Shown: positions 12,001-63,158 of the stretch, one piece after another
Numbering within the stretch: the first letter of the stretch is position 1
How the letters are laid out: every line of letters starts with the position of its first letter
Assembly (NCBI GenBank): GCA_043771175.1
Contig: JAYVHO010000006.1
Coordinates: forward strand, 9,800-73,799
Source of the DNA: a bacterium
Lineage (GTDB): Bacteria > Patescibacteriota > Minisyncoccia > Phycocordibacterales > UBA1006
Length of the DNA: 64,000 nucleotides
Reading direction: 5' to 3'
The notes under the pieces: generated by a model
Seen by the model: the letters and a program-made list of their open reading frames with translations, nothing else
Databases searched by the model: none
Told to the model about the DNA's origin: nothing
Position numbers and translations under genes: made by a program

Positions 12001-15000
12001 CAGAAATATCATCACGCACCAATCCTGCAACGTTATAATGGAACGCCGCATCAGCACCTGCGATTCCTCCGGTTAATGATCCATCCCATACGGTGGTGGT
12101 TCCATCAGAAAGAATATACTTTCCTTCATCAATGGAAGAAAGGGTATCTACATTTGAAAGTGTCTTTCCGTATTTAAGCGCCATGTATGATTCAATACGT
12201 TGTGTTTCTGCAGCAGTTTGTATAGATCCTTGCGCATAGGTAATTACTTCTCCAATGCGTCCAGTCATTGATGAAGTATTACTTGCAGTAGCACCAAGTA
12301 CCATTTGTGTCCCTGTTCCAGCAAATGACACCTGTGTTGCATCGAGTGAGTTCGTAAATACACGTCCATCTTTTTTAACACGTTGTCCAATAGTTCCATC
12401 ACCATCATTAGTAGTTGATCCAACTTCTGATGTTAAGTAATAAGTGTGATCGCTCATTCCAATATTCGCAGCAGAAACAATTACTTCATTGGTTGTTGCA
12501 TCTCCAAGACGTGAATAGTAGTTTGGTCCTGTTTGAAGAGCAATGGTTGCAAATCCGTCAGCAGAAAGAGTCGTATTTTCTGAAAGCAACCAGTCATTGG
12601 TTCCTTGTTCATCTGACATGTAGAAGAAGTACTTTGATGAGTTGGTATATGTTGTTCCTGTTCCCAAAATTCCGTTTGCATCGTAAAGGTTGTCTGATTC
12701 TGCAGCACAGGTATTATTACCAAATACAAAGTTAGTACTGGCGTTTACTCCACAAAATTGGAGTGTTTGTTGGTAGTTAGCATTAGCGTCAACTATCAAT
12801 CTTGGAATTCCTCCAGAAAGACCATCTGAGAAGTTATTTCCGTTTCCTGATTGATCTTTAATTAAAGCAACATCAGTTCCTGCAGTTGCAGCAGTGGTTC
12901 CAAGTGTGTCGGTATATACATCCTTGTCTGCACGTAGCCACAATTTAAGACCTGAAGCCACTCCTCCTGGAGCTTGTGCGTTATTTGGAAGTGCAATAGT
13001 AAAATAATCACCGTTTGCAAATGCAACACCAGAGAATGTTATAACAGTTCCAGAAACAGTTGGTGTGATTGGTGATATCGTGGCACCCGCTGCAAAGTTT
13101 GCATCAGCATCTATCAAAAGTCGAACTTGTGACATATCAGTTGCTCCAGCGTTGTGTGCAGCAAGATCAAGTGAAACATTCACCGTTCCAACATCTCCTA
13201 TTTTTTGAACTTGCCATTCACGGACAATTCGCCCATTCGTATACACAGGAAGACCAGCTGCCGGAAGTTCAGAATTTTGAACGCCAACTGCAGCACTGTC
13301 ACCTCCTACTGACAAGAATTCCATATCAGCAACCGTAGTGCTGTTTTGGTTTACTACTTCAATAATTGGTGAACCGGTCACAGATTGTGATGTTGTTTTA
13401 TATTTCAAAAGTCCAGAAACATCATCACGTCCAACTCCAGCAATACCAAGATTATGAGTTGAAGCACCTGATAGATCCTTATTCCACATCATTGTTGACC
13501 CATTAGATGCAAAGTATGTTGGAGAATTCGTTGTGTATTCAAAATATAAATCATTAGGTGACAATGATCCCGCTGCATTAAATGCAGTATTTCCTGTTCC
13601 TGGATAAATATCAGTTGAATTAGAGCGAAGTGCTACTGTCTTTCCAGCAGCCGTTGTATCTCCAAGAACCAAAGCATATGAAGTCCCAGCAGCAACAGTG
13701 TATGGTGTTGTTATAGAAATAGTAAATTTAGTACTTACAGGAACAACGCTGAGTAGTCCTGAAAGCCCAGCACCATACGTTACGGTTCCAACCGCTTGTG
13801 AATATGCAGGTGAAGCAATACATGCCGCAACATTTGTTGCATTTGGGTTTGAAACGATAGCACCAGTACAAATATAGAGATTAAGGTTTGATGAGTTGGC
13901 AGTCGCAGAACGTGTCATAAAACTCACATTAGTAATTGCAGCATTGGTTTTTGCCGTAAATACTTGTCCTACTGAGGTGCTTACCAGCGCATCTTGATTA
14001 TTAGTAAGTTGCAATTCTCCTCCCACTTGAGTAATTCCGTATTTAAATGCCAAATATGAGTTAATTTTATTTATTTCCGCTGCTGTATGTTGAGAGTTAT
14101 AAAATACCATTTCACCAACAGCACCATCAAAATTTTGTTCGCTGGTTGTATATGAACCAAAGTTCATCGCTGCAGTACTTGGTGTAATCGGACTATATGA
14201 AGCATTTTGTGCAACAGTTTTTCCATTTTGTTGAATTTGTTGTCCAATAAATGATCCTGTTGAATAATCAGCAGTATTGTAAAGATATGGTTGACCAAGC
14301 ACTGTACCAAGTGTCGTGTGTGGTACTGAAACAGTTGTACCGGAATCATGATATAACGTTGTGTTACTTAACGAAAGAATGAAATTTGTTCCTTGTCCTC
14401 CCCAAAGCCCTGAGTGAGAAACAGTACCTTGTGTTTCTTGTGAGGCAACGTTATATGTTTCCCAGTTTGAAAGTGTTGTTCCTGTTGGAAGCAAGTTAGT
14501 TGCAGTAGTTGTAAGTATATCGTTTTCTGCATCTTCAAAATCTACAACTGGGTTATAGTTAATCGCAAGTGTATTGGTTGCAGAGCGGAATTCTGGATTT
14601 GCTTGTTGTGTAGTCAAGTTGAACCCATTTCCTGATTGGTCTTTCCAAGAAGCCATAGAAGCTCCATCAGTTGCAACGGTAGTGTTTGCAGTTGTTGTAA
14701 ATGTCCCTGCGTCAGCCTTATACCATGCACGAAGTCCAGATGTTACTCCTCCTGGTGCGGTTCGAGGTAATACCATAGTAAAGTATTGTCCATCAACCAA
14801 TGACACACCAGTAAAACTTACACTGTTGTCAGTTGAATTATAAGTAGGTTCTCCTGAGGTTGGATATACCGTTTGTGTTCCACTGGCAAAGTTTCCATTA
14901 TCATCAACAACTAATCTAAATCCAGAAACATTTGCAGGAGAAATATTCATTGCATCCAAATCAAAAGTAAGCTTAAATGTTCCCATTGCAGGATCAACCG

Positions 15001-18000
15001 TAACTACATTGTTTACAATTGCATTTTTTTGGACTCTCCATTCACGCGATGTACGAGAGTTGGTAGCTGTTGGGATTCCGGTAGCTGGCATATCAGTTAC
15101 AACAATAGTTGCAGCTGGTGCGTTGGTTGATCCAACAAACATAAATTCTTTATCGTCAAGAAGTCCGGTGCTTTCTGCTTCTGTGGTAAGGAAAGAAACA
15201 GCTTCACCTTCTGCTTTTGATTTTGTATTGGTCAAAAGGAGTGCATTGTCTTTTGCAATTGCATGAACGTTATATACATAGTCATCACTTGCGGTTGTTG
15301 CAATATTTGCATCAACTACGTTTGATGTATTTGCGCTGATGTCAATTCCTTCTGAAGCATCAAACACAACTTGATTTCCTGATGAAACGTAATCACGTCC
15401 TCCGGTGCGGTATCCATCAACTGAAAAGTCCATATCAGTAGCGGCTGCAACCGTATCTTGGTTGATCATGGTTCCATTTGCGTAGTGGTTATTAGTAGTA
15501 TCACTATTAAGCACTAATGTTCCGCTTGCAGGTTTAACATGAATTACATAAGTGGTTCCAGCAGTTACCGCAAATCCAGCGTCAAATTGAACAGTAGCCG
15601 TAGTGTTAATTGATGGATTAGTTGGAAGGGTTGCTACTTTGTTTGTTTTTCCAACTCCAGGGTTTCCTGCAGTACATGTTGTAGCAGTTGCTGAAACTGA
15701 TGCATCACATAAATATACAGTTGCAGATGGTGCAGAGTTAGACGTTGATACTGTAAAACTTACTGAATTTACCGTTCCAGAATAATCAGCGGTAAAGGTT
15801 TGTCCAATAGAACCGGTATTTGTAGCTGATGTAGTAGTGTTATTGTATGCGTTACTTGCAAAGTTGGTTCCTTGCTGAGCAAGGGTAATACCATACTTAA
15901 TTGCCAAATATGATTCAATTCGTTCTCGATTTGATTGTGAAAGTTGCTCTTTATACACAATCATTTCTGAAATTGAACCAAGCCAAGTATCATTATTACC
16001 TCCAATATGAAAATTACTGGTGTTCATACTGGTCATATCCCACACGGTAGAAACAGAATTGAATCCGTTGGTTCGCATATTTACCGTTGAATCTGTTCCA
16101 CCATTCCAGTCCCATGACTGAAGCATTCCAGCACCCGGAACCATCATTGGATATCCATAGGTAGGGTTTGGAGTAGAAACATTTGAAAACATTGCAGGAC
16201 GTTCTGCTAATGTTCCAAGTATAAGAGTATCATTTCCAAGCTCTACAGCACTATCCCAACTAGATGTCGATGTGTCGTGTTTTCCAACAACAAAGAGTGA
16301 TCCAGCAGAAGTTGCGGTTGGAAATATTGTATTAGTACGATACAAAAGATCATCTCCGTCAAAATCAAGAGTTGGATGATAATTAACCGCTTCAGAAGTA
16401 GTTGCATCACGATATAGAGGTCTACTTGATAACGTAGGGTGTTGTACTGTATTTTCTAAAATTGAAGCATCTTTCCATGTATATACTGCTGATCCATTGG
16501 TTGTAGGTGTGGTTCCTCCGGCATCGGTATAGGTGTCTTTATCAGCTCTCCACCATCCAACAAGATTAGCATCAGGTACTTCAACAGGGTTATCGTTTGC
16601 AATTCCCCATGTTCGTCCTTCATTAAACACTTCAATTCCATCTGTATTAACAAAAGAAAGCCCTCCGATGGTGTAATACATTGGCGAAACATCTGGTGCA
16701 TCATAGGTGTATGAAATCGTAAGAATATCACCCGCTTGTGCAGCAACATCTTTAACGGTGATTACCTTTCCGTTATTTTCTGTTGAAATTTCTGTTGAAA
16801 GTGTTGTATCGTCAGCACTTACCTCTTCGGTGCCTGAGAAAATATTTTCAATAACATTTTGAATTTGCTCAATTACGGTTGGTGCTTCTACTGTTTCTGG
16901 TGCAACTTCAGGAAAAGTAACTTCACTACTAGCCACAGGAGCTTCTACGGTTGCAGGGGCAACTTCAGTTGAAGAAGTTGTTTCGGTAGTTACAGATGGA
17001 GCTTCAGGTGTAATAACTACGGTTTCTCCAGCTGGGATTTGTTCAATAATTGCAGGAAGGGTAACTTCTGGTGCTGTAGTTTCTGCAGGTGCTACCACTT
17101 CAGGAGTAGATGCACGAGAAATTACTGCAGTAACACCTTCTATGTCAAAATCAGCAGGTGCAAGCTCCTTAATAGAACCCGTAAAGTCTTCTCCAAAACG
17201 TACTGTCACGCTTGCTGGTGACTTACCGATAGGATACAGACGTGTTGCAATGATTCTTTCAATGGTTGCTTTTGCAGATTCTGCAACTACTACGGTTTTG
17301 GTAAGAGTTTTTGCTCCGCTTCCGTTATCAGTGGTAAGGTTAAAAATATAGGTACCTGATTGTCCAAAAATATAGTCATAGGTATAATCTGCAACCGTAT
17401 TGTTTGAGTCAAAGGTTACACATTTACCAGTATCAATAGGAGTAACGGTTTCAGTTGTTCCTGCAGGTGTAGTGATTGAAAGCGAATTAGTTGCTTCGCA
17501 CACTGGTGCTCCTGCATCATCAAGTACACCAATTGATATATTTCCCGTTTCACCTACCGTATAGGTATTTTGATCAAGGTTCATTGAAAGAACTCCCCAG
17601 GTAAAATCTTGTGAAAATGTTTCAACTTCGCCGGTAATAGGATTTAAAATTGATCCAGCAATGGTATAGGTACCAGGTGCTGCATCGCGAAGTGGAAACG
17701 CCATAATTACAGAACCTACTTCAAATGAAATATCTTCTGCTGGAATGGTGATGATTTGAGGTGCAGTAGTTGGTGCAACTGGTGCAGTTTCTCCATCTAC
17801 AGCTTCTGGAGCAACTTCTTTTTGAGTTGCTGTAAGGGTAATAAATTTACCAATGTCATTTGAGTCATTGATAAGGTCATCTGCTATTGCATTTACCTTT
17901 GCGGTATCGGTGCCAATGTCAGAGTAATCAGAAGGGTCAACTTCTGTGTTAGTGTTTAAAATATTTCCAATAGCACCAGAAATTCCAGAATTAGCTTCTG

Positions 18001-18694
18001 GGTTTGGGGTATTGATTTCTTTCTTGGTGGTAGTGATTCCAAGAATGGTTGCAAATGCTTCGGTGTCAGAAAGCTTGTCACCTTCATTTTTACCAACGAA
18101 GTCAAAATCTGCGATTTTTATTTTGATTTGGTTATCAGCAATTACTGATACTGGTTGTGGATTGATTACTGAATCAAGAATTGATACATCAGTGTTTTCT
18201 GGTGTAACTTCTGGCACAACAGGTGTGTCAGTTGGTGGTGTTGTAGGTGTAGTGGTGTCAGCAGGGACATTGGCGGGAATATCCAATGGTGGCGCATTCG
18301 GTTCTGAACCCGTGACCGACTGGTCTGCAGAAGTTTCTGTTACAGGATTAGTGGCAGGAACTACAACTTCTGAAGAAGAAGTATTGTCCGCAGGTGTTGC
18401 GTCAGGAGTGGTTGCAACCGCAGCAGGAGCCTCAGCAGATGGAACAGTCTCTATTGTTTGTGGTGCAGCATTTAATGTTGCATCTTGTCCGTTATCAACT
18501 GAAGAGGTGTCTGCAGATGGAGCAGCAGCTTCTTGTGCGTAAACTTCGACAACGGGTAAAAAAGAAGTAACCAAAAAACTTACCGCAAGTACGGTAGAAA
18601 GTACCTTGGTTAAGGTAGACGCAGAAGTAGTGGTAGTCTTTTTACCACGGATACTTTTGGTACTTGATTGAAAAACTTTAAAGAATGAATTCAT
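1..18694 (-). CDS. Giant secreted cell-surface protein (N-terminal >6,200 aa; 3' end beyond window): signal peptide, T/P/A/E-rich stalk, >=8 tandem modules with LamG/ConA-like lectin jelly-roll signature
   Basis: Hand translation of the minus strand from ATG at 18694..18692 gives MNSFFKVFQSSTKSIRGKKTTTTSASTLTKVLSTVLAVSFLVTSFLPVVEVYAQEAAAP... (N-terminal TM/signal, AQE cleavage-like site). An in-frame TAA lies 9 codons upstream of this ATG. Spot-checks of the frame (lines at 1, 5101, 9001, 12601) show no tta/cta/tca triplets in the codon phase. Recurrent module signature: ...TFAQKTPAAPGGVSTGL(K/R)AWYKAD.GVYSD... W.DQSGNGN... L.FDG.DD.L ... G.IAE.I.Y...LS..E..KIESYLA.KYG.TL, at least 8 times. 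The ORF track omits it because no stop codon falls in the window. Confidence 0.85.
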   Translation of the reverse strand, partial: MNSFFKVFQSSTKSIRGKKTTTTSASTLTKVLSTVLAVSFLVTSFLPVVEVYAQEAAAPSADTSSVDNGQDATLNAAPQTIETVPSAEAPAAVATTPDATPADNTSSSEVVVPATNPVTETSADQSVTGSEPNAPPLDIPANVPADTTTPTTPPTDTPVVPEVTPENTDVSILDSVINPQPVSVIADNQIKIKIADFDFVGKNEGDKLSDTEAFATILGITTTKKEINTPNPEANSGISGAIGNILNTNTEVDPSDYSDIGTDTAKVNAIADDLINDSNDIGKFITLTATQKEVAPEAVDGETAPVAPTTAPQIITIPAEDISFEVGSVIMAFPLRDAAPGTYTIAGSILNPITGEVETFSQDFTWGVLSMNLDQNTYTVGETGNISIGVLDDAGAPVCEATNSLSITTPAGTTETVTPIDTGKCVTFDSNNTVADYTYDYIFGQSGTYIFNLTTDNGSGAKTLTKTVVVAESAKATIERIIATRLYPIGKSPASVTVRFGEDFTGSIKELAPADFDIEGVTAVISRASTPEVVAPAETTAPEVTLPAIIEQIPAGETVVITPEAPSVTTETTSSTEVAPATVEAPVASSEVTFPEVAPETVEAPTVIEQIQNVIENIFSGTEEVSADDTTLSTEISTENNGKVITVKDVAAQAGDILTISYTYDAPDVSPMYYTIGGLSFVNTDGIEVFNEGRTWGIANDNPVEVPDANLVGWWRADKDTYTDAGGTTPTTNGSAVYTWKDASILENTVQHPTLSSRPLYRDATTSEAVNYHPTLDFDGDDLLYRTNTIFPTATSAGSLFVVGKHDTSTSSWDSAVELGNDTLILGTLAERPAMFSNVSTPNPTYGYPMMVPGAGMLQSWDWNGGTDSTVNMRTNGFNSVSTVWDMTSMNTSNFHIGGNNDTWLGSISEMIVYKEQLSQSNRERIESYLAIKYGITLAQQGTNFASNAYNNTTTSATNTGSIGQTFTADYSGTVNSVSFTVSTSNSAPSATVYLCDASVSATATTCTAGNPGVGKTNKVATLPTNPSINTTATVQFDAGFAVTAGTTYVIHVKPASGTLVLNSDTTNNHYANGTMINQDTVAAATDMDFSVDGYRTGGRDYVSSGNQVVFDASEGIDISANTSNVVDANIATTASDDYVYNVHAIAKDNALLLTNTKSKAEGEAVSFLTTEAESTGLLDDKEFMFVGSTNAPAATIVVTDMPATGIPTATNSRTSREWRVQKNAIVNNVVTVDPAMGTFKLTFDLDAMNISPANVSGFRLVVDDNGNFASGTQTVYPTSGEPTYNSTDNSVSFTGVSLVDGQYFTMVLPRTAPGGVTSGLRAWYKADAGTFTTTANTTVATDGASMASWKDQSGNGFNLTTQQANPEFRSATNTLAINYNPVVDFEDAENDILTTTATNLLPTGTTLSNWETYNVASQETQGTVSHSGLWGGQGTNFILSLSNTTLYHDSGTTVSVPHTTLGTVLGQPYLYNTADYSTGSFIGQQIQQNGKTVAQNASYSPITPSTAAMNFGSYTTSEQNFDGAVGEMVFYNSQHTAAEINKINSYLAFKYGITQVGGELQLTNNQDALVSTSVGQVFTAKTNAAITNVSFMTRSATANSSNLNLYICTGAIVSNPNATNVAACIASPAYSQAVGTVTYGAGLSGLLSVVPVSTKFTISITTPYTVAAGTSYALVLGDTTAAGKTVALRSNSTDIYPGTGNTAFNAAGSLSPNDLYFEYTTNSPTYFASNGSTMMWNKDLSGASTHNLGIAGVGRDDVSGLLKYKTTSQSVTGSPIIEVVNQNSTTVADMEFLSVGGDSAAVGVQNSELPAAGLPVYTNGRIVREWQVQKIGDVGTVNVSLDLAAHNAGATDMSQVRLLIDADANFAAGATISPITPTVSGTVITFSGVAFANGDYFTIALPNNAQAPGGVASGLKLWLRADKDVYTDTLGTTAATAGTDVALIKDQSGNGNNFSDGLSGGIPRLIVDANANYQQTLQFCGVNASTNFVFGNNTCAAESDNLYDANGILGTGTTYTNSSKYFFYMSDEQGTNDWLLSENTTLSADGFATIALQTGPNYYSRLGDATTNEVIVSAANIGMSDHTYYLTSEVGSTTNDGDGTIGQRVKKDGRVFTNSLDATQVSFAGTGTQMVLGATASNTSSMTGRIGEVITYAQGSIQTAAETQRIESYMALKYGKTLSNVDTLSSIDEGKYILSDGTTTVWDGSLTGGIAGADAAFHYNVAGLVRDDISALDQRIARSINNDNTMSIALDNNFTAANSDTVARPTQLATNKQAIMWGHNGGTQYFDTAVTTTNTNTRMNRVWKVKMTGLASRAVNIQFSNPSVMRLKNGQQYVILESATANMASPTELATATAVASGTTSLVTFAGVTLTTAKFYSLATKMIAPGGVTSKVINGVRSQIYIDNTWSDSFVSPTNWYANDALALENVGTGTSFAAPIMTSYADHIQGTNLGSVANGQWDDNYAEEFNGYIVIPTTGTGYTFTLDAGSATGNVDDAAQLWVDINADGLLDDTERIINIGSVSTATSASLTLTTPSAGLMRFRLRHKENATTDSIGISWTKTGTGAFARTALDSDDFRVEAPLAMWFKADAGAYDDYWTTKADPAVDNDKVNTWENSALVPNNDLVDAVTFVDGTGANYNSATGASGINFNPSLNVTSASLGIFTNARNTNATNGNQDANDYFGWTNGLAYMGGANTSFVVGMDPTVTASSEMFYSYGYDNGAGATNTSTTTFGRELTSGQLEIGQSSSNTANSYTGVIQSNVPFMFTGTTAAVTNPVGAVDSTVQTTYGYGLQRGTGTNTQRLHLGVSTRLYEVGDYADFGGHNFNGNISEIIHYPAQLSGTERYKVESYLAMKYGTTLLPFDRANGIETVVEGDYLSSTGAVVWDGNDTSVAATSFTGGHTKALNTENTQMSDVRFNTVTTAGCPSLGSCMYTSGTTTSGKVYQYTLSTPYVVSTAVYASKQFTVNAEVATPTALAFSNDGTKMYVAGAVGVVYQYTLTTAFDVSTAQTYAASGSKSLTIPSTTSVGMTFNNDGTKIFVLQGGNDFVYQFNLATAYDISTGVNSGITFDASNQDSNTNGLAFDATGTRMYIVGYTNDFVHQYVLTTAFDISTAIQVARFAVGTQDGQMAGIAFNPSGSIMVLVGNLSTTAVYDYDIPLVSIGVNALYSNEVTAIAQDNASGLLQLKSKSQMKNGMITIGTPSSLGDGDFLIVGNNGQDASTFISTGAYDGLGTATGYQRLNRSWKTQVTSTPGTVKIEVDTNDTDLDLPNITGPDGKLYLLGDITATGNGFADETPVVMYDDGTNGDTSANDNVWTAQTVTLVNTEVFTFGQKTPAAPGGVSTGLNLWVNAGSKVYSDTGSTLTTNGQSVRQWNDLSGNSNNMSQSTVGQRPIFAGSTSANAINFQPSLTFDAVDDNLQLAGSTSILSNVTNGRIFSMVTKPNLTGTWTSLFEQGAGNTNDPMFGIYDTDPVWYDNSASNRTSSIPMPAANTPFMLGFKWNTPGVGVGVTASVNGISETLAGFNNTFGAGPTKIGSENTETWDGNIAEIMSYNVEPSVTEVKKIRSYMAFKYGTTWLQPGDAQILNNVNMTIAADQGQQITAPSTGYINEITLKTGITTANGATGTLSICAGAVLASACAAAPAYSQSVTNIPTAVSTVFTIPLNTAFPITAASLYTFVLSTTSGTNINLIAQNTNAYAGGTATFASSVFAGDLFFTYSMTSPDYLASNGTTKMWDTTVAGTYNQDIAGFGKDTGSDLLTTKSKQQSINGIVTIAANVPADLADLEFVSISNKNSGFTTGWTTTAAPSGYQRIGTSAGQREWFYQENGDGVTTLNLSVDTTDTDSNISEVNGTDGKLYFLYDQNNDNDLLDATDLAPMYDDGTNGDTTNGDGIYNIQINLATATEFTFAQITPAAPGGVSGNLRAWYAADQDVTTVSDNDSNSLLDVNYWKDQSGNQIDMGMSTVSAYPDLYTGASAGAYNYNPTLLFDGSNDRLQDMDGDGPIGLISNAESFGADNLDTYTYIVSQTNSTVSSTLFHQGLSGGKKYQADSIVSGREYLFSGNATCSNAASSGCMYVNYYDSGNVLQRPYISTYGTQTTNATGKFIRKNGKVMISNSTDEIGKNVNDTTAISGTSDDFEIGAAEGTQYFQGRIAEMVFYVGNNSGQTDLEQTKIQSYLALKYGMTLSNVDPSGNGAAGSNDNDLFAGGFGEGDYILSDGTTSVWNGHTDGDDTGDSVGAEQATIVGGVAVSYHNDVAGIGRDDAGGLNRKIAHGVNDDDIVTMALDNHFFIANNDPTRTQMNANKTWLVWGNDNGSRFFDTPITHGSVNLRIGRTWKTKTTGTITTNPYVRIGGSSARAIDLIPGQTYTLLTDADGVFDSGSTAIATAIPQFKTAADVSTLYLDFGQVNFSTNAYFTVATYQSAPGGVVADYMPGLRVEAYNEFPSGNTSATDNENSIGKDSPYSVPHMMWYTSDFANIDDASISNIGLSNEEGSMEVYGQMNMTDTTQKVFNYTGTTNDMFSLWIDDQPIITGVATANSEGVYTPTSTGWKNVRVKWSNRGGTGDFNLTWKNNASTCSGSCINIPNNLLRVYAPQTAWYKAGTKMFTDTTGAAATTTDGTHIIRWDSVSPIINAAGRTDGGNTYENDSVNLVNGNPIINNNSDKFLVGTNVSSSLESTRTIYTWGLPMMNAARTLYSAVTAATPTATQFLFTYGDDVTPTARYPYGTENAAGEIRVRDHQINNMEVTPGTIEQQSANTPFTMGASYSGGDSAATTTNTNSIWGNGKRTAYLTTNISMQTNDQLELRINGSNYDTADWTGRVGEHILYPWELTSVQRQKVDTYLSLKYGTTYIGGEDQLSLNATNTASTNVGQVITASVTGGINNITLQTGATANAAGGTLHICTGAVAMATCIASPISATHYSQVLTTIPTALNTNFTIPLTTPYEVIAGTQYTFLITAPTNVFLRIQSSDVYLGGNQAGFGTQDLYFDVDIKPDLVNGSGTTIWSYDTYHNYVTGIMKDNASALEQLSSLSTANTSTLGNGGIVRISKATLANNDALIIGDNNGSATTWTSSATIPSGYMRPGTASSVIEWRAREIGTAANNYTIAVNLENTQGTGSRNLPDVTALNNTLYTIFDSNEDGLLTDEVLGTGILAMNDDGINGDTTANDRIYSLSNVALDDTNKFTFAQNTLPTPGAVSTGIMAWYKANKGVYSDVNGTTPAVDGNSMNRWNDMSGNDKWMQMYSTAPTYRTTTAANPSTTTNTAINFNPVMYASGDGYAMQVPGARGGVLGTNTYNDVYAYVVVNNLDLSGNEDIYNHANTGTALNFRLGVSNTTTRLTNSAGTTLDSTNANAGTNTLTPYIWKTQVKTTGGNRMSIARNGAELTSSASGSAVTGNNGVSYLGVSNGWYNGGIAEAIYYGADQSSGTSQQKIESYLAIKYGITLNKGIDQNLQNDSNGGSGQTVGWGQTFTASATGQIGSITLQTNSSGTQNSGPGTLYLCNGASATSGTCIASPVYTQAFTAPTTASTVYTVQLTTPFNVTSGSAYTMVFGQTTGSFYNRFQSTSTYSGGTLLTSVGTQPTQDIYFAANYLANDYVLSNGTSKVYTALNNAYSQSITAIARDDAADLSQLKSRSVNATAIWTLGNGNNLSTPSTFSADLSGASIASNGADARVWTTTGAPTGKQVITRNWKFEKTGTVGTVTLAINTENTNSSNISDIPTISSANGILYLVVDDEAAATANFTDETGGTVIPMFDDGTNGDQTAGDKVYTINNLTLASGQYFTVAQNIPPAPGGYSTGMKAWYKADTGVYSDTGATVPAVQGTNQAVRWLDLSGNNKTLVAANIPDYQNATSSQAINFNAAVDFVGGNNEYMDVPASIGGILNADTYNDLHLYMVSAADSSGENNEMLNQTGMNGSGYFGIRGISQGGANHYIYGTSAQSVNFGNAGTTFPSTHMWHMYNKTTGPDEVSLLRDNKVMITYPVASPMTSTNAYTRLGGGQFAYSDQKMGEIIVYAGDNTSGDINQRIESYLALKYGLVMDQTVPTDYIASDSTTKMWSSDSLVTEATYVNDIFGIGRDDASGLSQVKSKSRSQADTGIITLSTTSGTIPTDKSFMTMADNGGSASFVTGQAPTGYQILGKRWQVQQPSSDIGNVTLQIDVNDSQFNIANASNFSLMIDTDNNGTYFNESVSNGGVYPLYDDGTNGDVTANDSVWTIQNVDFQTLTNAQE

Positions 18695-19090
18695 AATAAT
18701 GTTGTTTTATAAAGTGATTTATAAATAGTTTAATAAATAATTACATCTACAACGATGTGCATATATTGTAACATTTTGAATACAATCTATTCATATAAAA
18801 TTCATAAATCACCATGTTGATAAGTGATATTTTTCAAATGATTTGCATTTTAAATTTTCTCTTTTATTACTCATTTGCATAAAATTTTTTAACAACATCT
18901 TGTCCGTTAGAAATAATTTATTTATCAGATTAACCGCTCTAACTAATTCTTTTTTGAAAAGCTTCATCCTAATTAGTTTTTGTTATCACCATGTTTTTGA
19001 ATACAAATTAATCACAATATACCAAGCTGGAACAAAACACTTTTATAGACAGTGCATAGGCGAGATTCATAAAAAATGCAGCTGACAAGC
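18695..19090 (-). promoter_or_regulatory. AT-rich upstream region of giant gene (probable promoter/5' leader)
   Basis: ~400 bp of very AT-rich non-coding sequence immediately 5' of the giant ORF start. No convincing ORF; the 18843..19085 '+' ORF is low-complexity AT-rich. Confidence 0.35.
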
Positions 19091-50458: not shown

Positions 50459-50531
50459 ATAATTTGTGAGTATTACGAATATGTCATAAGTATATCACTA
50501 TAAAAAAACACCCTCGAAAGGATATTTTTTG

Positions 50532-50616
50532 TGCCCAAGAGAGGACTTGAACCTCCATGCCCGTTACAGGCGTTACCACCTCAAGGTAGTGCGTCTACCA
50601 GTTTCGCCACCTGGGC
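50532..50616 (-). tRNA. tRNA-Leu (anticodon GAG), long variable arm
   Basis: Minus-strand GCCCAGGTGGCGAAACTGGTAGACGCACTACCTTGAGGTGGTAACGCCTGTAACGGGCATGGAGGTTCAAGTCCTCTCTTGGGCA. Anticodon loop TTGAGGT. Class II variable arm. CCA not encoded. Confidence 0.8.
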
Positions 50617-57910: not shown

Positions 57911-57982
57911 GCCCCTGTAGTTCAATGGATAGAATAGGTCCGTCCTAAGGATTTGATGGTGGTTCGATTCCACCCATGGGCA
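57911..57982 (+). tRNA. tRNA-Arg (anticodon CCT); one C-U mismatch in acceptor stem (5:68)
   Basis: GCCCCTGTAGTTCAATGGATAGAATAGGTCCGTCCTAAGGATTTGATGGTGGTTCGATTCCACCCATGGGCA. Anticodon loop GTCCTAA. Confidence 0.7.
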
Positions 57983-58077
57983 CAAGATATCGCCATTTAA
58001 ACCGCGAATAAAACGTTCTTCTTCACACCCGTTTGGGAGTTTAGGATTTACATCAAATTCTTTGGTGTATCCATTAT

Positions 58078-58437
58078 CTATAAATTAAATTCTGCTTCCA
58101 AACTTTTAATAAAGTTTTCAATAGAAACTAAATCAGTCATAAAATAAGTTAATAAACTTTTGCCAGTATATCCTGCTCCAATTCTTAGAACAACCTTATA
58201 GTGTCCCAGATTGTCTAATTTAATGAGATTAAAGTATTGATCAGAATCATAATCATTAAACTCAAATATTTTTAGATTTAATTTTGAGCTTAATTCATCT
58301 TTATAAAAATTGAAGTTTGATTTACCGCTAAATTGAGAATTTTCTATTTGCCAAACACATTCAATGTTTCTATCATATAACTTAAATTCTGAAAAAATAA
58401 TTGATGAATCAAGACCATTTAATTTAATATTACTCAT
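58078..58437 (-). CDS. Immunity-like small cytoplasmic protein (paralog of 59654..60016 and 58963..59427); starts 4 nt after orphan CT stop
   Basis: 119 aa; ...FEFNDYDSDQYFNLIKLDNLGHYKV... aligns with FIESNESDYNNFKLIIGPDLVIQ of the 120-aa protein. No signal peptide or TM. Confidence 0.6.
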   Translation of the reverse strand: MSNIKLNGLDSSIIFSEFKLYDRNIECVWQIENSQFSGKSNFNFYKDELSSKLNLKIFEFNDYDSDQYFNLIKLDNLGHYKVVLRIGAGYTGKSLLTYFMTDLVSIENFIKSLEAEFNL

Positions 58438-58441
58438 AGGT

Positions 58442-58810
58442 TTATTTTATTAATCCAATAAATTTAAAATCATCGACCGCTTTAAAATTTCCAAATTCAT
58501 CAAGTAGTGCATTAAAATGGATTTCAATTTTAATACCGTCTGAAAGCTCTTTACTATAAGCAAATTTATTCCAGCCTAGCCAACGAGTATCTGTTAGTGT
58601 TGGCATTTTCAGTTTTATACCAAGACCTTTCGGATTTGCAAGAATTTCTTTCATTACTAATTCCTCTTGGAGCGTATTAGCAACATTTCGACCCGTCGAT
58701 CCTAAGCCTAATGGTTTAAGTGGTATTTGTGTAGCTATTGAAACCTCTTTTAGAGTATTATTTACGATCGCCTTTACCTCACTATTCCTTCACTTGCTGC
58801 TTTTATTAAA
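58442..58810 (-). pseudogene. Orphan effector C-terminal cassette: 116-bp pre-toxin homology (58695..58810) + 1-nt frameshift + intact 70-aa variable CT ORF (58442..58654) ending DDFKFIGLIK
   Basis: Upstream in-frame extension reads RNSEVKAIVNNTLKEVSIATQIPLKPLGLGSTGRNV...MKEILANPKGLG... The effector reads GNSEVKAIVNNTLKEVSIVTQIPLKPLGLGSTATQKTW... Frame broken by deletion (attacc to attcc) at ~58787 giving a TGA at 58790..58792. CT is ~50% identical to the effector CT (TDTRWLGWNKFAYSKELSDGIKIEIHFNALLDEFGNFKAVDDFKF vs NDSRWLGWSKLSYSRKVIDRGVEYLVEIHFNAKKINGTITLVDDFKF). Confidence 0.75.
58695..58810. repeat. Copy B of the 116-bp repeat, upstream of orphan CT ORF
   Basis: See copy A. Homology decays on both sides (58685-58694 unrelated; downstream of 58810 only patchy similarity, e.g. 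aggtcaagtg). Confidence 0.9.
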
Positions 58811-58962
58811 GACAGGTCAAGTGTTGTATATTGAGTTATCTGATGAGTATGATAATCAAGGAGAATAATTGAAGTAAAAGAGGTGAGGAAGCTATGAGTT
58901 TATTCTTTAATTAAGCGTATCTTAAAAACTCGCAAGAGTGAGTTTCTATGCTTTGATTTCTG

Positions 58963-59427
58963 TTATGGTTGGATATTTTCTTTCAAAACAGTCCACGGGT
59001 TTTCTCCACGTGCTTTTTTTGTTTTTATAACATAGTCATAAAATTTTTTAAAGTCGCCTTCTTGTCCTATAATATCGTTTAGCATTTGTTGTGGATCATT
59101 TTCAAATAATTCACGAGGGCCTATAATTAATTTTATTTCTGGCCAAGGTCTAGTTGGCTCTATTATTATCCAGTTTTCTGGAATTGAATTATCTATTATT
59201 TCAAAATAAATAGAAAACTCCGTAAAACCATTTTCGTCGGCATACGAAATACTACCTAAATCAAAAGATTTTTCACTATGCTTAAATGGTTTTGAAACGA
59301 CAATAAACCAAACTTCTTTAATTTCTCCTATTTTAATACGCTCATTTGTTCTTTGTAAATCCTTATTACCTATGTATATAAGTGCTTCCGACTCAGTAAT
59401 TTCATTTCTAATTGCTTTAATTTTCAT
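58963..59427 (-). CDS. Immunity-like protein paralog (154 aa)
   Basis: ...IPENWIIIEPTRPWPEIKLIIGPRELFENDP... shares the KLIIGP motif region with the 120-aa protein. Starts 3 nt after the stop of a 28-codon CT remnant. Own terminator AAACTC..GAGTTTTT at ~58928..58955 (minus strand). Confidence 0.6.
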   Translation of the reverse strand: MKIKAIRNEITESEALIYIGNKDLQRTNERIKIGEIKEVWFIVVSKPFKHSEKSFDLGSISYADENGFTEFSIYFEIIDNSIPENWIIIEPTRPWPEIKLIIGPRELFENDPQQMLNDIIGQEGDFKKFYDYVIKTKKARGENPWTVLKENIQP

Positions 59428-59430
59428 AAA

Positions 59431-59520
59431 TTATTGGGTTATATTCTCAAGGAATTTAAAATCATCAATGGTGAAATAGCAAACAACCACGCTTTCAGCG
59501 AGATCACCATACACTTTTTA
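59431..59520 (-). pseudogene. Remnant of a third effector C-terminal cassette (28 codons ending ...VCYFTIDDFKFLENITQ*)
   Basis: Minus-strand translation: K V Y G D L A E S V V V C Y F T I D D F K F L E N I T Q stop. It shares the terminal (V/I)DDFKF motif and the 'stop + 3-4 nt + ATG' junction seen at the two other CT/immunity junctions. Confidence 0.5.
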
Positions 59521-59653
59521 AGTTTTTCTTTATTTGCTTGATTCATATTATTAATTTTGATTATAAACTTGATTAACTAATTCTGACCAAAAAGGTATAT
59601 ACTCGGCATTTTTTAATAATTCATAGTTAATTTTTCCTGGTTGTTAATGTAGA

Positions 59654-60016
59654 CTATGATTTTTCATCATACACATTTTCTAATAATTTGTTATTTAAAT
59701 GCTGACCCGCTATTGTATCTTTTTGAACAATTTCATAAAGATTGCCTTTCTGTATAACCAAATCAGGACCAATAATCAATTTAAAATTATTATAATCACT
59801 CTCATTGCTCTCAATAAATCTAATTTTCCAATCTTTGTTTAATTCATTGTTAATAAATACTAGATACTTTAAATCCAAACAAATAATTGATTTATCAATT
59901 ATAACACCAAAAGTAAACTCACCACTAGTAAGAAGATACAGAAATGCAACATCAAAAACCATTTCACTATCTTTCTGTGAATAATCAATATTTGTATTTT
60001 TTAGTTTAACTTTCAT
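59654..60016 (-). CDS. Putative cognate immunity protein of the effector (120 aa), starts 4 nt after effector stop
   Basis: MKVKLKNTNIDYSQKDSEMVFDVAFLYLLTSGEFTF...FIESNESDYNNFKLIIGPDLVIQKGNLYEIV... Cytoplasmic. Paralogous to 58078..58437 and 58963..59427. Confidence 0.6.
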   Translation of the reverse strand: MKVKLKNTNIDYSQKDSEMVFDVAFLYLLTSGEFTFGVIIDKSIICLDLKYLVFINNELNKDWKIRFIESNESDYNNFKLIIGPDLVIQKGNLYEIVQKDTIAGQHLNNKLLENVYDEKS

Positions 60017-60020
60017 ATAT

Positions 60021-62888
60021 TTATTTTACTATAAATTTAAAATCATCTACTAAGGTTATAGTTCCATTAATTTTTTTTGCATTAAAATGAATTTCGACCA
60101 AGTACTCAACACCTCTATCAATAACTTTTCTTGAATAGGATAATTTACTCCAGCCTAGCCACCTTGAATCATTTAATGAAGTAATTATAGTTGCGCTATT
60201 TAGATTAGGATTTGAAAGTATTTCATCCATAGCTAATTTTTCAGCAACATTCTTCGCCTCAATATAAGATTCATTAGTTTTTAGTGCTATTGACCACGTT
60301 TTTTGGGTTGCTGTCGATCCTAAGCCTAATGGTTTAAGTGGTATTTGTGTAACTATTGAAACCTCTTTTAGAGTATTATTTACGATCGCCTTTACCTCAC
60401 TATTACCTTCACTTGCTGCTTTTATTAAATTATCGGCATTAGACCCAAATTTAGCCATAGTAGCTGCTTTGAATAAAGAAAGGTCAAGTGCAGTAAGGGC
60501 AATATTTGGATATCTCATGACATACGCATCAATCCATTCTTTGTCTGTCGCAGGTACACCAAATACATTAGATCCAGTATATGCTATTTTGATTTGATTT
60601 ACTGATACCACAGTACCTATTGCTCCAAGAGTCCCAAGAGAATAAGTCACCGCAGCAGGACATCCCACCCCGGCCGAATAAAAACATATAGCCGCTGACC
60701 CCCCTACAAGTATAACCGTTGCTCCTGCCATTGTTACTATACTTCCGATACTGGTGAATTCTGCCTTTGTCTCTGCTTTTGATTGAGATAACTGCGTACG
60801 GAAATCAGAAACAGCAAGATCTTCTGAAATTTTGTCGAATGCTCGGGCAAGGGAAATTTCAGAATCAATAAGGGATTGAGTTTCACTTGTATTCGTATAT
60901 GTTATAGTCGTAAACCCAAAACGAGCCTTTTCCGTGTCGATAGCCATCTTTGCTGTTTTTATTACAGCGTCTTGTATTTCAGCACTTTTTAATTTACTAA
61001 TTTTATAGGTGAGTGTGTTTATTGTTATTTGATTATTGGTTTTATACGTAGATAATACGTTTGTCTTTGCAGTTATTTGAGATTTAATGCTTGAAATATC
61101 AGTAGTAAGTGTGGCCAATAATGACTTAAGTCTTTGTATTTCTGTATCTCCAAATGCTTTTAGTTTCTGTGCTTTAGCAAAATCTGCAGAGGCATTTGAT
61201 ACTTCTGCTTTTGCGTCTGTTTTTTGATTATTAAGTGAATTTATTTGCGATTGATAAGAATTTATTTGGTTGTTCCAATAGGTAACATTGGATTTGGCAG
61301 TAGATGCTTGATTAGTGAAACTTATATATGAATTGTAATAATTATTTGATATAGCAGTATATCCTTTTTTATTTTTGTAGGTATTGTAATTATTTAAGGC
61401 CGCTGATGCTTGAGCGGTATATGAATTTGCTTGATTGGTATATGTTGCTACATTATTATTTGCTGAACTAATTGATTTACTGATATTAGCAATTTGAGAA
61501 TCCAGACTCGATAATTTTGCGTTCAGATTTGCAGATAGCTTTGAAACCGTTGCGGATGATGCAGTTACTTGTGATCCAACCGCACCTAATGAGTAAGTAA
61601 CTCCATTTTGAATGAATGATCCACTATTAATTTTATTGTTTAAATCTGTTGCAGACGCTTGTTTGGTAGCAAGAGAAGAATTTAAAACAGAAAGATCAGA
61701 ATTATATGCCGTTATTTTTGTATTAATTGCATCTAATTGAGATTTGTACGTAGCAATACTAGAAAGAGATCCACCACCTTCTGTAAGCAAGGCTTGCAAA
61801 TTAGAAATGGCTTGTATATACAAAGATTGATTTCTGGCTATTTCATTAAGACTTTTTAAGATATCAACAGTACCGACAGCACCTTGGTTATCTTTGTCTG
61901 TTTTTGCGGTTACATCAACGATACTATCAAGTGTTTTTTCTTGAGTAAGTGCTAGTGGAGTCTTCAAACCATTTCCCAATTTTGTATAACACGCCGCTCG
62001 TGCAGTATTACGTGTTGTCAGTGTTGTTATTTTCATTGCTGATGCAATACATACTTTAAAAGCATTAACTATATTTTGAGTTGAAGCATCAGATCCATCT
62101 ACGGAAATTGCTGCAATGTATACAGGAACATACTTCCCCCATATGGTCATTGCTTCTTCGTCTGATATATCAAAACCTTGTGGGTTTGTATCAGAAACCA
62201 CGAGTGCAGAGCCTGTATATATATGTTCAAAATCTTTTACGGAATATTTAATATTTCCCGCTTCTGTATCTGATAGTTCAACAATTCCTTTCACAGAATT
62301 ATATTCGCGAATTACTGAAAAGTGTCCTCCGACTTCTTTTTTTTCATCGTGAATTAATACGGGGTCACTAGTTTCACTTATATATGAAAGGATTTCGTTC
62401 GAGTTCCATTTTTTTAAGAAAACTTTTTGTGAAGTAAGTTGTGAAGCAGCTTGTTTAAGAGCAAATAAATTTGTTCCTTTTTCACTATTGAGATTTTCTG
62501 ATGCGATAAGGGCAAGTACTTCACTTTCAGAAATATCATCACCCAATTGTGTAAGCAGGGTTGCCAACGATGCCGGACCGCAATAATAGTCTTTTGATTG
62601 TCGTACAACGGCAGTAAAATCTTTTTTTGAATCATTTTCCGCTGTGTCGTCTCCAAGATCAAGATCTGCGTCGTCTTCTTCAGGTTCGGTTTCTAGCACC
62701 TGTGTGTCTGGTGCTGTTGATTCCGTTAATACCGTTGGTGGAATTACTGATGTTGATAATTCTTCGGCATGTACCATGAATGGCATACCAACCATCGCAA
62801 TTAATTGTAAAAATGCAAGGGATTTTGTAGTATATAATTTCATATGATGATATAAAATAAATTTATAATGATAATATATACCTCCCAA
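60021..62888 (-). CDS. Secreted polymorphic-toxin-like effector: signal peptide - acidic linker - papain-like C39-type peptidase domain - ~370-aa coiled coil (N/S/Q/T-rich) - glycine-zipper hydrophobic segment - conserved pre-toxin region - variable C-terminal domain (…DDFKFIVK)
   Basis: Probable start MKLYTTKSLAFLQLIAMVGMPFMVHA/EE at 62843. C39-like: ...VVRQSKDYYCGPASLATLLTQLG... (Gln/Cys) ...EVGGHFSVIREYN... (His). Coiled coil: ...LSSLDSQIANISKSISSANNNVATYTNQANSYTAQASAALNNYNTYKNKK... Hydrophobic: SIGSIVTMAGATVILVGGSAAICFYSAGVGCPAAVTYSLGTLGAIGTVVSV. Pre-toxin: SEVKAIVNNTLKEVSIVTQIPLKPLGLGST, duplicated at 58695..58810. Confidence 0.8.
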   Translation of the reverse strand: MGGIYYHYKFILYHHMKLYTTKSLAFLQLIAMVGMPFMVHAEELSTSVIPPTVLTESTAPDTQVLETEPEEDDADLDLGDDTAENDSKKDFTAVVRQSKDYYCGPASLATLLTQLGDDISESEVLALIASENLNSEKGTNLFALKQAASQLTSQKVFLKKWNSNEILSYISETSDPVLIHDEKKEVGGHFSVIREYNSVKGIVELSDTEAGNIKYSVKDFEHIYTGSALVVSDTNPQGFDISDEEAMTIWGKYVPVYIAAISVDGSDASTQNIVNAFKVCIASAMKITTLTTRNTARAACYTKLGNGLKTPLALTQEKTLDSIVDVTAKTDKDNQGAVGTVDILKSLNEIARNQSLYIQAISNLQALLTEGGGSLSSIATYKSQLDAINTKITAYNSDLSVLNSSLATKQASATDLNNKINSGSFIQNGVTYSLGAVGSQVTASSATVSKLSANLNAKLSSLDSQIANISKSISSANNNVATYTNQANSYTAQASAALNNYNTYKNKKGYTAISNNYYNSYISFTNQASTAKSNVTYWNNQINSYQSQINSLNNQKTDAKAEVSNASADFAKAQKLKAFGDTEIQRLKSLLATLTTDISSIKSQITAKTNVLSTYKTNNQITINTLTYKISKLKSAEIQDAVIKTAKMAIDTEKARFGFTTITYTNTSETQSLIDSEISLARAFDKISEDLAVSDFRTQLSQSKAETKAEFTSIGSIVTMAGATVILVGGSAAICFYSAGVGCPAAVTYSLGTLGAIGTVVSVNQIKIAYTGSNVFGVPATDKEWIDAYVMRYPNIALTALDLSLFKAATMAKFGSNADNLIKAASEGNSEVKAIVNNTLKEVSIVTQIPLKPLGLGSTATQKTWSIALKTNESYIEAKNVAEKLAMDEILSNPNLNSATIITSLNDSRWLGWSKLSYSRKVIDRGVEYLVEIHFNAKKINGTITLVDDFKFIVK
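60313..60429. repeat. Copy A of 116/117-bp near-identical repeat (pre-toxin recombination anchor), inside effector gene
   Basis: gtcgatcctaagcctaatggtttaagtggtatttgtgtaActattgaaacctcttttagagtattatttacgatcgcctttacctcactattAccttcacttgctgcttttattaaa versus 58695..58810: 1 substitution + 1 single-base indel. Confidence 0.9.
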
Positions 62889-63085
62889 AAGATCTATACT
62901 ATGTCTTTAAACCAAAAATAAGGACGACAAAACCAGTAGAATGGTCTCGTCGTCCTTATTGTAAGATGTATGAAGTCTATCAGAGTCAAAAGCAGAGTCA
63001 ATGAGTGTATTTTATACAAGGCGTTGTTAAAAAACTAATATACACAAAACCCCTCTCGCAATTACGCGATTGGGGTTTTATTGTG

Positions 63086-63158
63086 TGTCCTCAGAAGGGA
63101 TCGAACCTTCGACCGTCGGCTTAAAAGGCCGCTGCTCTACCAGCTGAGCTATAAGGAC
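63086..63158 (-). tRNA. tRNA-Lys (anticodon TTT)
   Basis: Minus-strand GTCCTTATAGCTCAGCTGGTAGAGCAGCGGCCTTTTAAGCCGACGGTCGAAGGTTCGATCCCTTCTGAGGACA. Anticodon loop CTTTTAA. Confidence 0.85.

Follow-up and report, generated by a model that had tools for sequence, protein, structure and literature searches.

In a 64,000-nt stretch of contig JAYVHO010000006.1 (GenBank assembly GCA_043771175.1, from a patescibacterial bacterium of the lineage UBA1006), referred to below as the window, we analyzed a direct repeat that is shared by a full-length polymorphic toxin gene and an orphan toxin fragment downstream of it. We consider it probable that this repeat is the common 5' edge of two toxin/immunity cassettes, that older cassettes have been displaced downstream within the locus, that the C-terminal toxin domain (CT) of the orphan, CT2, is silent and that the array is now mainly a store of immunity genes. 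All genes of the locus that are involved lie on the minus strand, and their order is the main toxin gene (ending in CT1) with its putative immunity gene imm1, an almost erased toxin with orf154, and the orphan CT2 with imm2 (Table 1). An earlier note, made from the letters of the window alone, had described a polymorphic-toxin gene with an orphan toxin/immunity module, truncated at its 5' end, behind it, which both the family relationships and the layout support; its two-module picture had overlooked the third module (28 codons plus orf154) between the other two.

Extent of the repeat and differences between its copies

The two copies occupy positions 58695-58810 in the orphan (116 nt) and 60313-60429 in the main gene (117 nt), and repeat search, MAFFT and Smith-Waterman alignment agree on these limits. 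That they differ by one substitution and one single-base deletion, as had been reported before, was confirmed by the alignments and by blastn (98.3% identity over 117 columns, E = 1e-53). The substitution at 58734/60352 is a G in the orphan versus an A in the main copy on the plus strand, corresponding to a GCT Ala codon versus a GTT Val codon. The missing base is 60405 of the main copy, which on the coding strand is the T of a Gly codon (GGT) and is absent between positions 58786 and 58787 of the orphan; blocks of 39, 52 and 24 nt are identical without exception. Translated, the repeat reads NLIKAASEG(N)SEVKAIVNNTLKEVSI(V/A)TQIPLKPLGLGST. It sits exactly at the point before the divergence of the two CTs where the earlier note had placed it, and is 8-9 codons longer at its 5' end than the peptide quoted there. 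The description as 'pre-toxin' holds for the 5' part and fails for the 3' end: the profile of the toxin family, which is based on 147 unrelated members, begins at kLKPLGLGSTGR. Because this start coincides with the last 10 codons of the repeat, we count these codons as toxin domain already, and by the same profile only the 5' two-thirds are carrier-side linker.

Sequence identity falls sharply at both edges of the repeat, from 98% to about 50-69%. On the 3' side CT1 and CT2 are homologous, with 52% amino acid identity over 75 aligned positions and 18 extra residues in CT1. On the 5' side about 36 nt (58811-58846) can be weakly aligned with 60478-60520 across a 48-nt offset, with a local score of 13 compared to 9.2 +/- 1.3 for shuffled sequences, 8 of 500 of which reach the observed score. 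The former statement that the flanking DNA is unrelated or decays quickly is therefore roughly right, but overlooks the homology of the toxins and the faint 5' similarity. A gap-lenient global DNA alignment of the flanks had given inflated identities and was dropped in favor of protein identity and local scores. Within the block the synonymous sites are conserved as well, so that protein constraint gives no explanation for its identity. A block at 98% amid diverged homologous flanks indicates either that recombination or gene conversion took place recently within the block or that donor and recipient alleles may already have had it in common.

These data also bear on the idea that a local tandem duplication of the gene's 3' end together with the immunity gene was followed by divergence under diversifying selection, with a junction kept similar by protein constraint. 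The homology of CT1 and CT2 and the head-to-tail order of the modules would fit such an origin. However, it would account neither for the abrupt drop of identity at both edges nor for the conserved synonymous sites between them, the two modules are separated by a third that is made up differently, and imm1 and imm2 are unrelated, each with relatives of its own in other genomes. Moreover, duplication as a source of arrays of different immunity types has been argued against (PMC5361080), and we regard this origin as improbable.

Reproducibility of the sequence

The orphan copy, including its deletion, was found to be 100% identical to the window in three further contigs: L002 (Logan SRR23617300), L014 (ERZ28573545) and L015 (ERZ27315199). 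In addition, a 121.7-kb contig (L001) that is identical to the window, and from which the window probably derives, spans both copies of the repeat and was assembled with k = 141, which is longer than the repeat. Short-read metagenome assemblies do break here, as the Logan contigs L002 and L012 start and end within the repeat, which is what an assembly or sequencing artefact in the repeat or in the single-base deletion might look like. With the deletion-bearing sequence present in at least three other assemblies and samples and a contig of large k running through both copies, the probability of such an artefact is practically negligible.

Exact-protein look-ups of imm1, imm2 and orf154 returned 4-5 contigs each, all of them 100% identical to and colinear with the window, and the same look-ups of P0036 (the internal ORF discussed below) and P0001 gave no record. 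One candidate for a structural variant was rejected. The first 114 nt of L014, a 1.3-kb scaffold (ERZ28573545 scaffold_482581), join the window at 59790 inside imm1 and match nothing else in the window. They are probably a chimeric scaffold end, a strain-level breakpoint at this joint being a possible alternative.

State of the orphan toxin

The deletion shifts the reading frame within the orphan copy of the repeat. The frame entering from upstream hits a TAA four codons past the deletion (...SEGIVR, then stop), and a TGA located two codons ahead of NSEVK closes the toxin frame, so the claim that the deletion introduces a stop was essentially right. That the frameshift is what silences the orphan did not hold up: no usable ATG, GTG or TTG was found upstream of Met-58654 in either frame of the orphan, and because of this lack of a start codon the fragment would be untranslatable even if the frame were restored. 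Furthermore, it has no signal peptide and no promoter-like box. Lacking a start codon and an export domain and carrying a -1 frameshift, CT2 is, as far as can be read from the DNA, silent at present; its coding sequence is intact over 93 codons.

We consider it very improbable that the orphan is expressed as it stands, be it as a small intracellular fragment from the internal ATG at 58654, as the earlier note had suggested, or through a frameshifting ribosome that passes the deletion. In favor of such expression, gene callers predict a 70-aa open reading frame (ORF; P0036) at this site, an AAGAGGA resembling a Shine-Dalgarno motif lies 7 nt upstream of the ATG, and Met-58654 is a conserved residue of the toxin domain. 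However, Shine-Dalgarno motifs are rare in the window: of 40 starts examined, only 2 have one, ATG 58654 and a single other. The box that marks many starts here, a TATAAT-like sequence ending 4-12 nt before the ATG (18 of 35 genes between 19000 and 64000 versus 7.4% of background ATGs), is present at imm1 and imm2 and absent from ATG 58654. A product starting there would have neither signal peptide nor carrier and would miss about 20 positions at the start of the 89-position profile, among them G26, G28, S29, E54 and L56, five columns that are invariant in an alignment of 7 toxin sequences. The deletion lies outside any homopolymer or slippery run (GAAGG-AATAG), and an upstream start codon is missing in both frames, as stated above. 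Most likely the 70-aa ORF is just the truncated toxin frame.

As an observation on its own, the pattern of gene starts between 19000 and 64000 suggests that leaderless mRNAs are widespread; in a literature search we found no paper that describes such gene starts for Patescibacteria.

Immunity genes and the erased third module

Position directly after a toxin, together with the recurrence of their families behind toxins of this type, marks imm1, orf154 and imm2 as putative immunity genes. None of the three gave a significant match in Pfam, NCBIfam or PDB sequences. orf154 belongs to a family that we call immunity family A: in pairwise BLASTP it matches L005 13115-13486 (E = 1.5e-7), L025 457-879 (E = 1.5e-4) and L027 584-1009 (E = 0.002). 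By position, the relatives of orf154 are two paralogues behind the toxin P0005 of a Paceibacteria metagenome-assembled genome (MAG; E = 1.5e-7 and 0.006) and the genes that follow P0039 and P0038, two apparently stand-alone or fragmentary versions of the toxin domain located on short contigs. Between imm1 and orf154 the relation is weak (E = 0.003-0.02), and imm1, which can be aligned with family A, counts as a weak member. For imm2, which defines family B, a homologue search returned only the protein itself; its only detectable relative is the gene after toxin P0019 (L029 3605-3982), with 31% identity over 74 aa (E = 7e-7). P0019 is another carrier with an N-terminal C39 peptidase and this type of toxin, and the relative of imm2 lies at exactly the same position behind it. 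An hhalign comparison of imm2 with family A gave no sign of a relation (probability 0.9%).

The locus of P0005 (L005 12693-14393, MAG contig JBBQKQ010000004) itself consists of P0005, which has the same CT type, followed by the two paralogous family A genes and then by an orphan RNase-Sa-like fragment (13603-13956) with a 143-aa gene of its own.

Directly before orf154 we observed an open frame of 28 codons that ends in TIDDFKFLENITQ followed by a stop and thus carries the terminal motif of the toxin family. The spacing between toxin and immunity gene is 3 nt in this third module versus 4 nt in the other two. When positions 59428-59653 were searched with the hidden Markov model of the toxin, only 7 residues of the DDFKF tail were recovered (E = 0.49 taken alone), and by this search the rest of the third toxin is gone or unrecognisable. 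In summary of the array, all three immunity ORFs are intact; as for the orphan toxins, 28 codons are left of one, and the other carries a frameshift at the 5' end.

Table 1. Features of the toxin locus and its boundaries (positions in the window)
Feature	Position	Strand	Basis or remark
tRNA-Lys(TTT), boundary of the locus	63085..63158	-	tRNA search (ARAGORN, Rfam)
Full-length polymorphic toxin gene (940 aa + stop)	60021..62843	-	called as 940 aa in L001; homologues
Predicted Sec signal peptide (MKLYTTKSLAFLQLIAMVGMPFMVHA)	62769..62843	-	hydrophobic residues 9-28 (Kyte-Doolittle), then VHA/EE
Peptidase C39 domain	62187..62609	-	PF03412, E = 4e-15, 56 bits versus cut-off 22
Hydrophobic Gly/Ala-rich segment between coiled coil and toxin	60660..60761	-	Kyte-Doolittle 19-residue window reaches 2.0
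Repeat copy of the full-length gene (117 nt; linker and first 10 toxin-domain residues)	60313..60429	-	repeat search, MAFFT, blastn, Smith-Waterman
CT1 toxin domain (PLKPLGLGST...DDFKFIVK)	60024..60341	-	C-terminus of the 940-aa protein
imm1, 120-aa putative immunity gene for CT1	59654..60016	-	starts 4 nt after toxin stop; TAAAAT box ends 6 nt before ATG
Remnant of third toxin, last 28 codons (KVYGDLAESVVVCYFTIDDFKFLENITQ, stop)	59431..59517	-	terminal (I/V)DDFKF motif, 3 nt before ATG of orf154
orf154, intact 154-aa orphan putative immunity gene, family A	58963..59427	-	BLASTP against genes directly after same-family toxins in unrelated genomes
Weakly conserved 5' extension of the orphan (TTLDLSL...), 48-nt deletion relative to main gene	58811..58846	-	repeat search, shuffles
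Repeat copy of the orphan (116 nt; 1-nt deletion 58786/58787; Ala for Val at 58734)	58695..58810	-	same sequence in L002, L014, L015
CT2 toxin domain of the orphan (stop codon 58442-58444)	58445..58723	-	frame intact, all family-invariant residues kept
70-aa internal ORF (P0036), called by gene finders	58442..58654	-	SD-like (Shine-Dalgarno) AAGAGGA present; no TATAAT-like box
imm2, 119-aa putative immunity gene for CT2, family B	58078..58437	-	starts 4 nt after CT2 stop; TAAAAT box ends 6 nt before ATG
tRNA-Arg(CCT), 3' boundary of the locus	57911..57983	+	tRNA search (ARAGORN, Rfam)

Proposed displacement of cassettes and possible recombination

The order of events that we propose for this locus is as follows. 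The expressed gene would encode a Sec-secreted carrier, composed of a C39 peptidase, a coiled-coil stalk of about 400 aa and a hydrophobic segment, which ends in CT1 and is neutralised in the producer by the product of imm1 directly downstream. Successive installation of cassettes would push the older ones downstream, where the immunity genes are kept and the toxin parts decay; for the installation itself we infer that one side was joined by homologous recombination in the carrier or linker and the other by an illegitimate event. The middle cassette would then have lost nearly its whole toxin with its immunity gene left intact. The distal one would still contain the repeat, with 39 codons from the linker and the toxin N-terminus, as well as an intact CT2 and the immunity gene that belongs to it. 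Because CT2 appears silent and the immunity genes have promoter-like boxes of their own, the array would now be mainly a store of immunity genes with one archived toxin.

The same main-plus-orphan layout was observed in three other loci of the carrier family. In L010 the repeat measures 250 nt at 92% identity and ends 375 nt before the stop, L024 has a 39-nt exact match together with similarity at the protein level, and in L005 the orphan is an RNase-Sa-like toxin. The GC content of the cassettes is 24-32% compared to about 35% for the genome, as expected for exchanged DNA.

The 116-nt block could further serve as a substrate for RecA-type recombination between direct repeats. The earlier note had held that the orphan becomes expressible by recombination onto the full-length gene, which would be correct in part: an in-frame product would result only from a crossover within the 92 nt 3' of the indel, where the exact blocks of 52 and 39 nt lie. 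Such a crossover would delete 1,618 bp and yield an in-frame fusion of the carrier with CT2, followed by imm2; imm1 and orf154 would be lost along with the deleted DNA.

Several points weigh against the displacement of cassettes as the origin of the repeat and against the recombination just outlined. The near-identity of the block could stem from recent gene conversion instead of a displacement event, and the exact blocks, at 52 and 39 nt, are short for RecA to recombine them efficiently. Loss of imm1 in the predicted deletion would expose the cell to the CT1 of its siblings, a caveat that has been discussed before (PMC3967940). No structural variant or recombinant was present among the retrieved contigs carrying imm1, imm2 or orf154, every one of which is colinear with the window; the swapping of cassettes by homologous recombination, which the earlier note had taken as given, has precedents (PMC3967940, PMC4287609) and no recombinant contig to go with them. 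A protein search for the orphan junction together with CT2 found no full-length carrier-CT2 chimera, which is a weak negative because the database searched lacks the window's own toxin too. The junction peptide QIPLKPLGLGST, searched with free wobble positions in metagenome contigs of the JGI, had 0 matches in a collection from which this lineage is missing. More generally, CT2 fused to a full-length gene was found nowhere in the collections searched, and since public data cover this lineage very thinly, the lack of recombinants is weak negative evidence.

Some of these observations concern the question of whether the repeat is maintained by use, i.e. whether subpopulations regularly express carrier-CT2 and the orphan is an alternative weapon. 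The intact CT2, which has retained all residues invariant in the family, would be in line with an active switch, and the contrast between the 98% block and its diverged flanks suggests that recent recombination or gene conversion was limited to the block. A crossover anywhere in 92 of the 116 nt would give an in-frame product, RuvA and RuvX are encoded nearby, and there is an experimental precedent in the Rhs proteins of Salmonella (PMC3967940). However, the homology comprises just 116 nt, in which no exact block exceeds 52 nt, the collections searched yielded neither a recombinant contig nor a recombinant protein, and the deletion would cost the cell orf154 as well as imm1. Selection on the toxin parts of the orphans appears relaxed, judging from the frameshift in the anchor and from the erasure of the middle toxin. 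Taken together, an active switch seems doubtful to us, and we prefer displacement of older cassettes with a silent CT2.

Comparison with known toxin systems

The layout of the locus corresponds to that of the Rhs and CdiA orphan modules and of the silent mafB-CT cassettes; the arrangement would be of a known kind, and the lineage and the carrier would be new. The orphan rhs-CT/rhsI and cdiA-CT/cdiI modules of Enterobacteria (Koskiniemi et al. 2014, PMC3967940) likewise consist of a 5'-truncated toxin fragment and an immunity gene downstream of the main pair, and there too the fragment keeps a conserved stretch beside the variable toxin and lacks signals for translation initiation and export. 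In these systems the main gene can acquire the orphan toxin by recombination across the stretch that both have in common; no recombinant was observed here. In Salmonella, rhs-main and the rhs orphan have 522 bp in common at 95% identity and recombination mobilises the orphan toxin (PMC3967940), compared to 116 nt at 98% in our case, where the host is a bacterium of the candidate phyla radiation (CPR). Unlike Rhs and CdiA, the carrier described here has no RHS/YD repeats, DPxGL, TPS, FHA or CdiB.

In the maf islands of Neisseria (Jamet et al. 2015, PMC4287609) a Sec toxin with a signal peptide is followed, as here, by CT cassettes that each have an immunity gene. Some of the mafB-CT cassettes lack an initiation codon and are considered silent, and it has been proposed that they are swapped in by recombination (PMC4287609). 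The present locus differs in that the MafB N-terminal domain and a mafA partner are missing and the carrier is built of a C39 peptidase and a coiled coil. A third parallel is Vibrio cholerae's type VI secretion system (T6SS) (Kirchberger et al. 2017, PMC5361080), in which incoming modules displace the effector and the immunity gene is kept, giving rise to arrays in which intact orphan immunity genes stand beside decayed effectors; homology-facilitated illegitimate recombination is the proposed route (PMC5361080). The middle module, with its 28-codon toxin tail and intact orf154, fits this displacement model. However, no T6SS is involved here, and the distal orphan has kept a complete toxin domain.

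The carrier family

The repeat itself is a textbook feature of polymorphic toxins and involves no new principle. Of more interest than the repeat are its by-products, namely an undescribed carrier family of CPR bacteria, an unnamed toxin family and the two immunity families belonging to it.

The carrier gene starts at ATG 62843 and not at the TTG 62888 proposed by the ORF finder. Its 940-aa product has a predicted Sec signal peptide, an N-terminal C39 peptidase domain, a coiled-coil region with many weak coiled-coil matches that forms a stalk of roughly 400 aa, a Gly/Ala-rich segment that may act as a membrane or translocation element, judging from its hydrophobicity, and a C-terminal toxin domain of about 90-100 residues. 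The C39 residues Q83, C89, H175 and D193 are invariant in an alignment of 22 sequences. In a larger alignment of 35 sequences this still holds for H175 and D193, and at least 90% of the sequences have Q83 and C89. In passing the Pfam gathering score and conserving Gln, Cys, His and Asp, the domain resembles the C39 bacteriocin-processing peptidases of the ComA/LagD type, and we take the spacing of these four residues to be ComA-like as well. In contrast to ComA and LagD, it is not fused to an ABC transporter but lies behind a signal peptide at the N-terminus of the protein. No ABC-transporter domain was detected on the 940-aa protein or among the called genes of the 18-kb locus around the gene in L001, and a TPS domain, FHA repeats, VENN, RHS/YD repeats and DPxGL gave no Pfam or NCBIfam match on the protein. 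In the survey of Zhang et al. (2012, PMC3482391) C39-like domains occur only as toxin heads ('Tox-PL-C39') and not as N-terminal parts of carriers.

A homologue search with the carrier yielded 35 proteins of 541-1096 aa. Peptidase_C39 was found at the N-terminus of all 34 homologues scanned, the closer ones share the coiled coil too, and the C-termini are mutually unrelated, comprising Colicin_D, Ribonuclease, RNAse_A_bac (CdiA-type), CDI_toxin_EC869_like and PT-TG. A constant N-terminal region combined with unrelated C-terminal toxins is what defines polymorphic toxin families (PMC3482391). Because the homologues share C39 yet end in unrelated toxin modules, the carrier family is, by its domain composition, a polymorphic toxin family. 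Going by their loci and by the one protein with a name, the homologues come mostly from CPR MAGs (Roizmanbacteria, Nomurabacteria, Paceibacteria, Peribacteria and Gracilibacteria), and one locus was binned as Pseudobdellovibrionaceae. The labels given to the carrier in public annotation are only 'C39 peptidase' or 'double-glycine peptidase', and in one genome paper on Microgenomates a secreted C39 peptidase appears merely as a peptidase; a literature search for this carrier family in CPR bacteria found nothing specific. The sample that gave the window contig also contains a second carrier gene, P0002, on an 86-kb contig (L030, ENA ERZ27315211 k141_5805970), which is 57% identical, has another C-terminus and stems from a second locus or a related organism.

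Tentatively, and with a chance that we put a little short of even, the carrier may represent an undescribed class of polymorphic toxins found mainly in CPR bacteria/Patescibacteria, in which a signal peptide, an active C39 cysteine peptidase, a long coiled coil, a hydrophobic segment and an exchangeable toxin are combined, C39 acts as the releasing or processing protease, and anchors of about 40-250 nt at the linker/toxin border shuffle the cassettes, the toxin and both immunity families being new. If so, epibionts with tiny genomes would shuffle toxin cassettes through short linker/toxin anchors. In a wider sense, the locus suggests that CPR bacteria with reduced genomes keep a contact- or secretion-based toxin arsenal together with spare cassettes and stored immunity genes.

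The toxin domain

Neither CT1 nor CT2 had a significant match in Pfam (no family at E <= 1), NCBIfam or PDB sequences. A profile search in 1.84 billion representative proteins, however, gave 1,125 clusters that match the toxin domain at E <= 1e-3, and in the best 150 of these 1,125 clusters the match ends nearly always within about 20 residues of the C-terminus. The same domain occurs on RHS, PT-HINT and DUF6443 proteins, and the Rhs-borne versions share the kLKPLGLGSTGR motif. Judged by this distribution, CT is a widespread terminal toxin domain carried by unrelated trafficking architectures. For CT1 a RelE/ParE-like fold is predicted, and on this model the domain is probably an RNase. A sequence-profile match of CT1 or CT2 to RelE, ParE, HigB or YoeB was not found in Pfam or NCBIfam. 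The RNase toxins of the RelE/ParE superfamily (BECR fold) include the 'Tox-RelE' of polymorphic toxins (Zhang et al. 2012, PMC3482391), and their catalytic set differs from the motifs observed here (PLGxGSTGR, D-x-RW-x-W-x-K, E-I-H and DDFKF). The locus provides clean boundaries for this toxin domain with its predicted RelE-like fold, for the two immunity families and for the carrier family, none of which has a database model, and characterising them would improve the annotation of many metagenomic genomes.

Surroundings of the locus and further features of the window

The toxin locus covers about 5.1 kb between tRNA-Arg(CCT) and tRNA-Lys(TTT), and its cassette part is the most AT-rich section of the window (58001-60000, 28.5% GC). 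A tRNA-like gene of 86 nt at 50531-50616 on the minus strand has an irregular anticodon according to ARAGORN ('tg') and, with 44.9 bits in Rfam, is the weakest of eight tRNAs. At the opposite end of the window, positions 2-18706 (minus strand) form one stop-free frame of 6,235 codons that runs off the window start. It has a signal-like N-terminus at about 18690 and a GC content of 40-41% compared to about 34% in the remaining window, and is probably a gene for a giant surface protein. The use of UGA as a sense codon was considered and rejected, as the long ORFs, including the frame of 6,235 codons, are uninterrupted under translation table 11. The 42 ORFs end in TAA (30), TAG (11) and TGA (1), and the trinucleotide TGA is twice as frequent as TAG.

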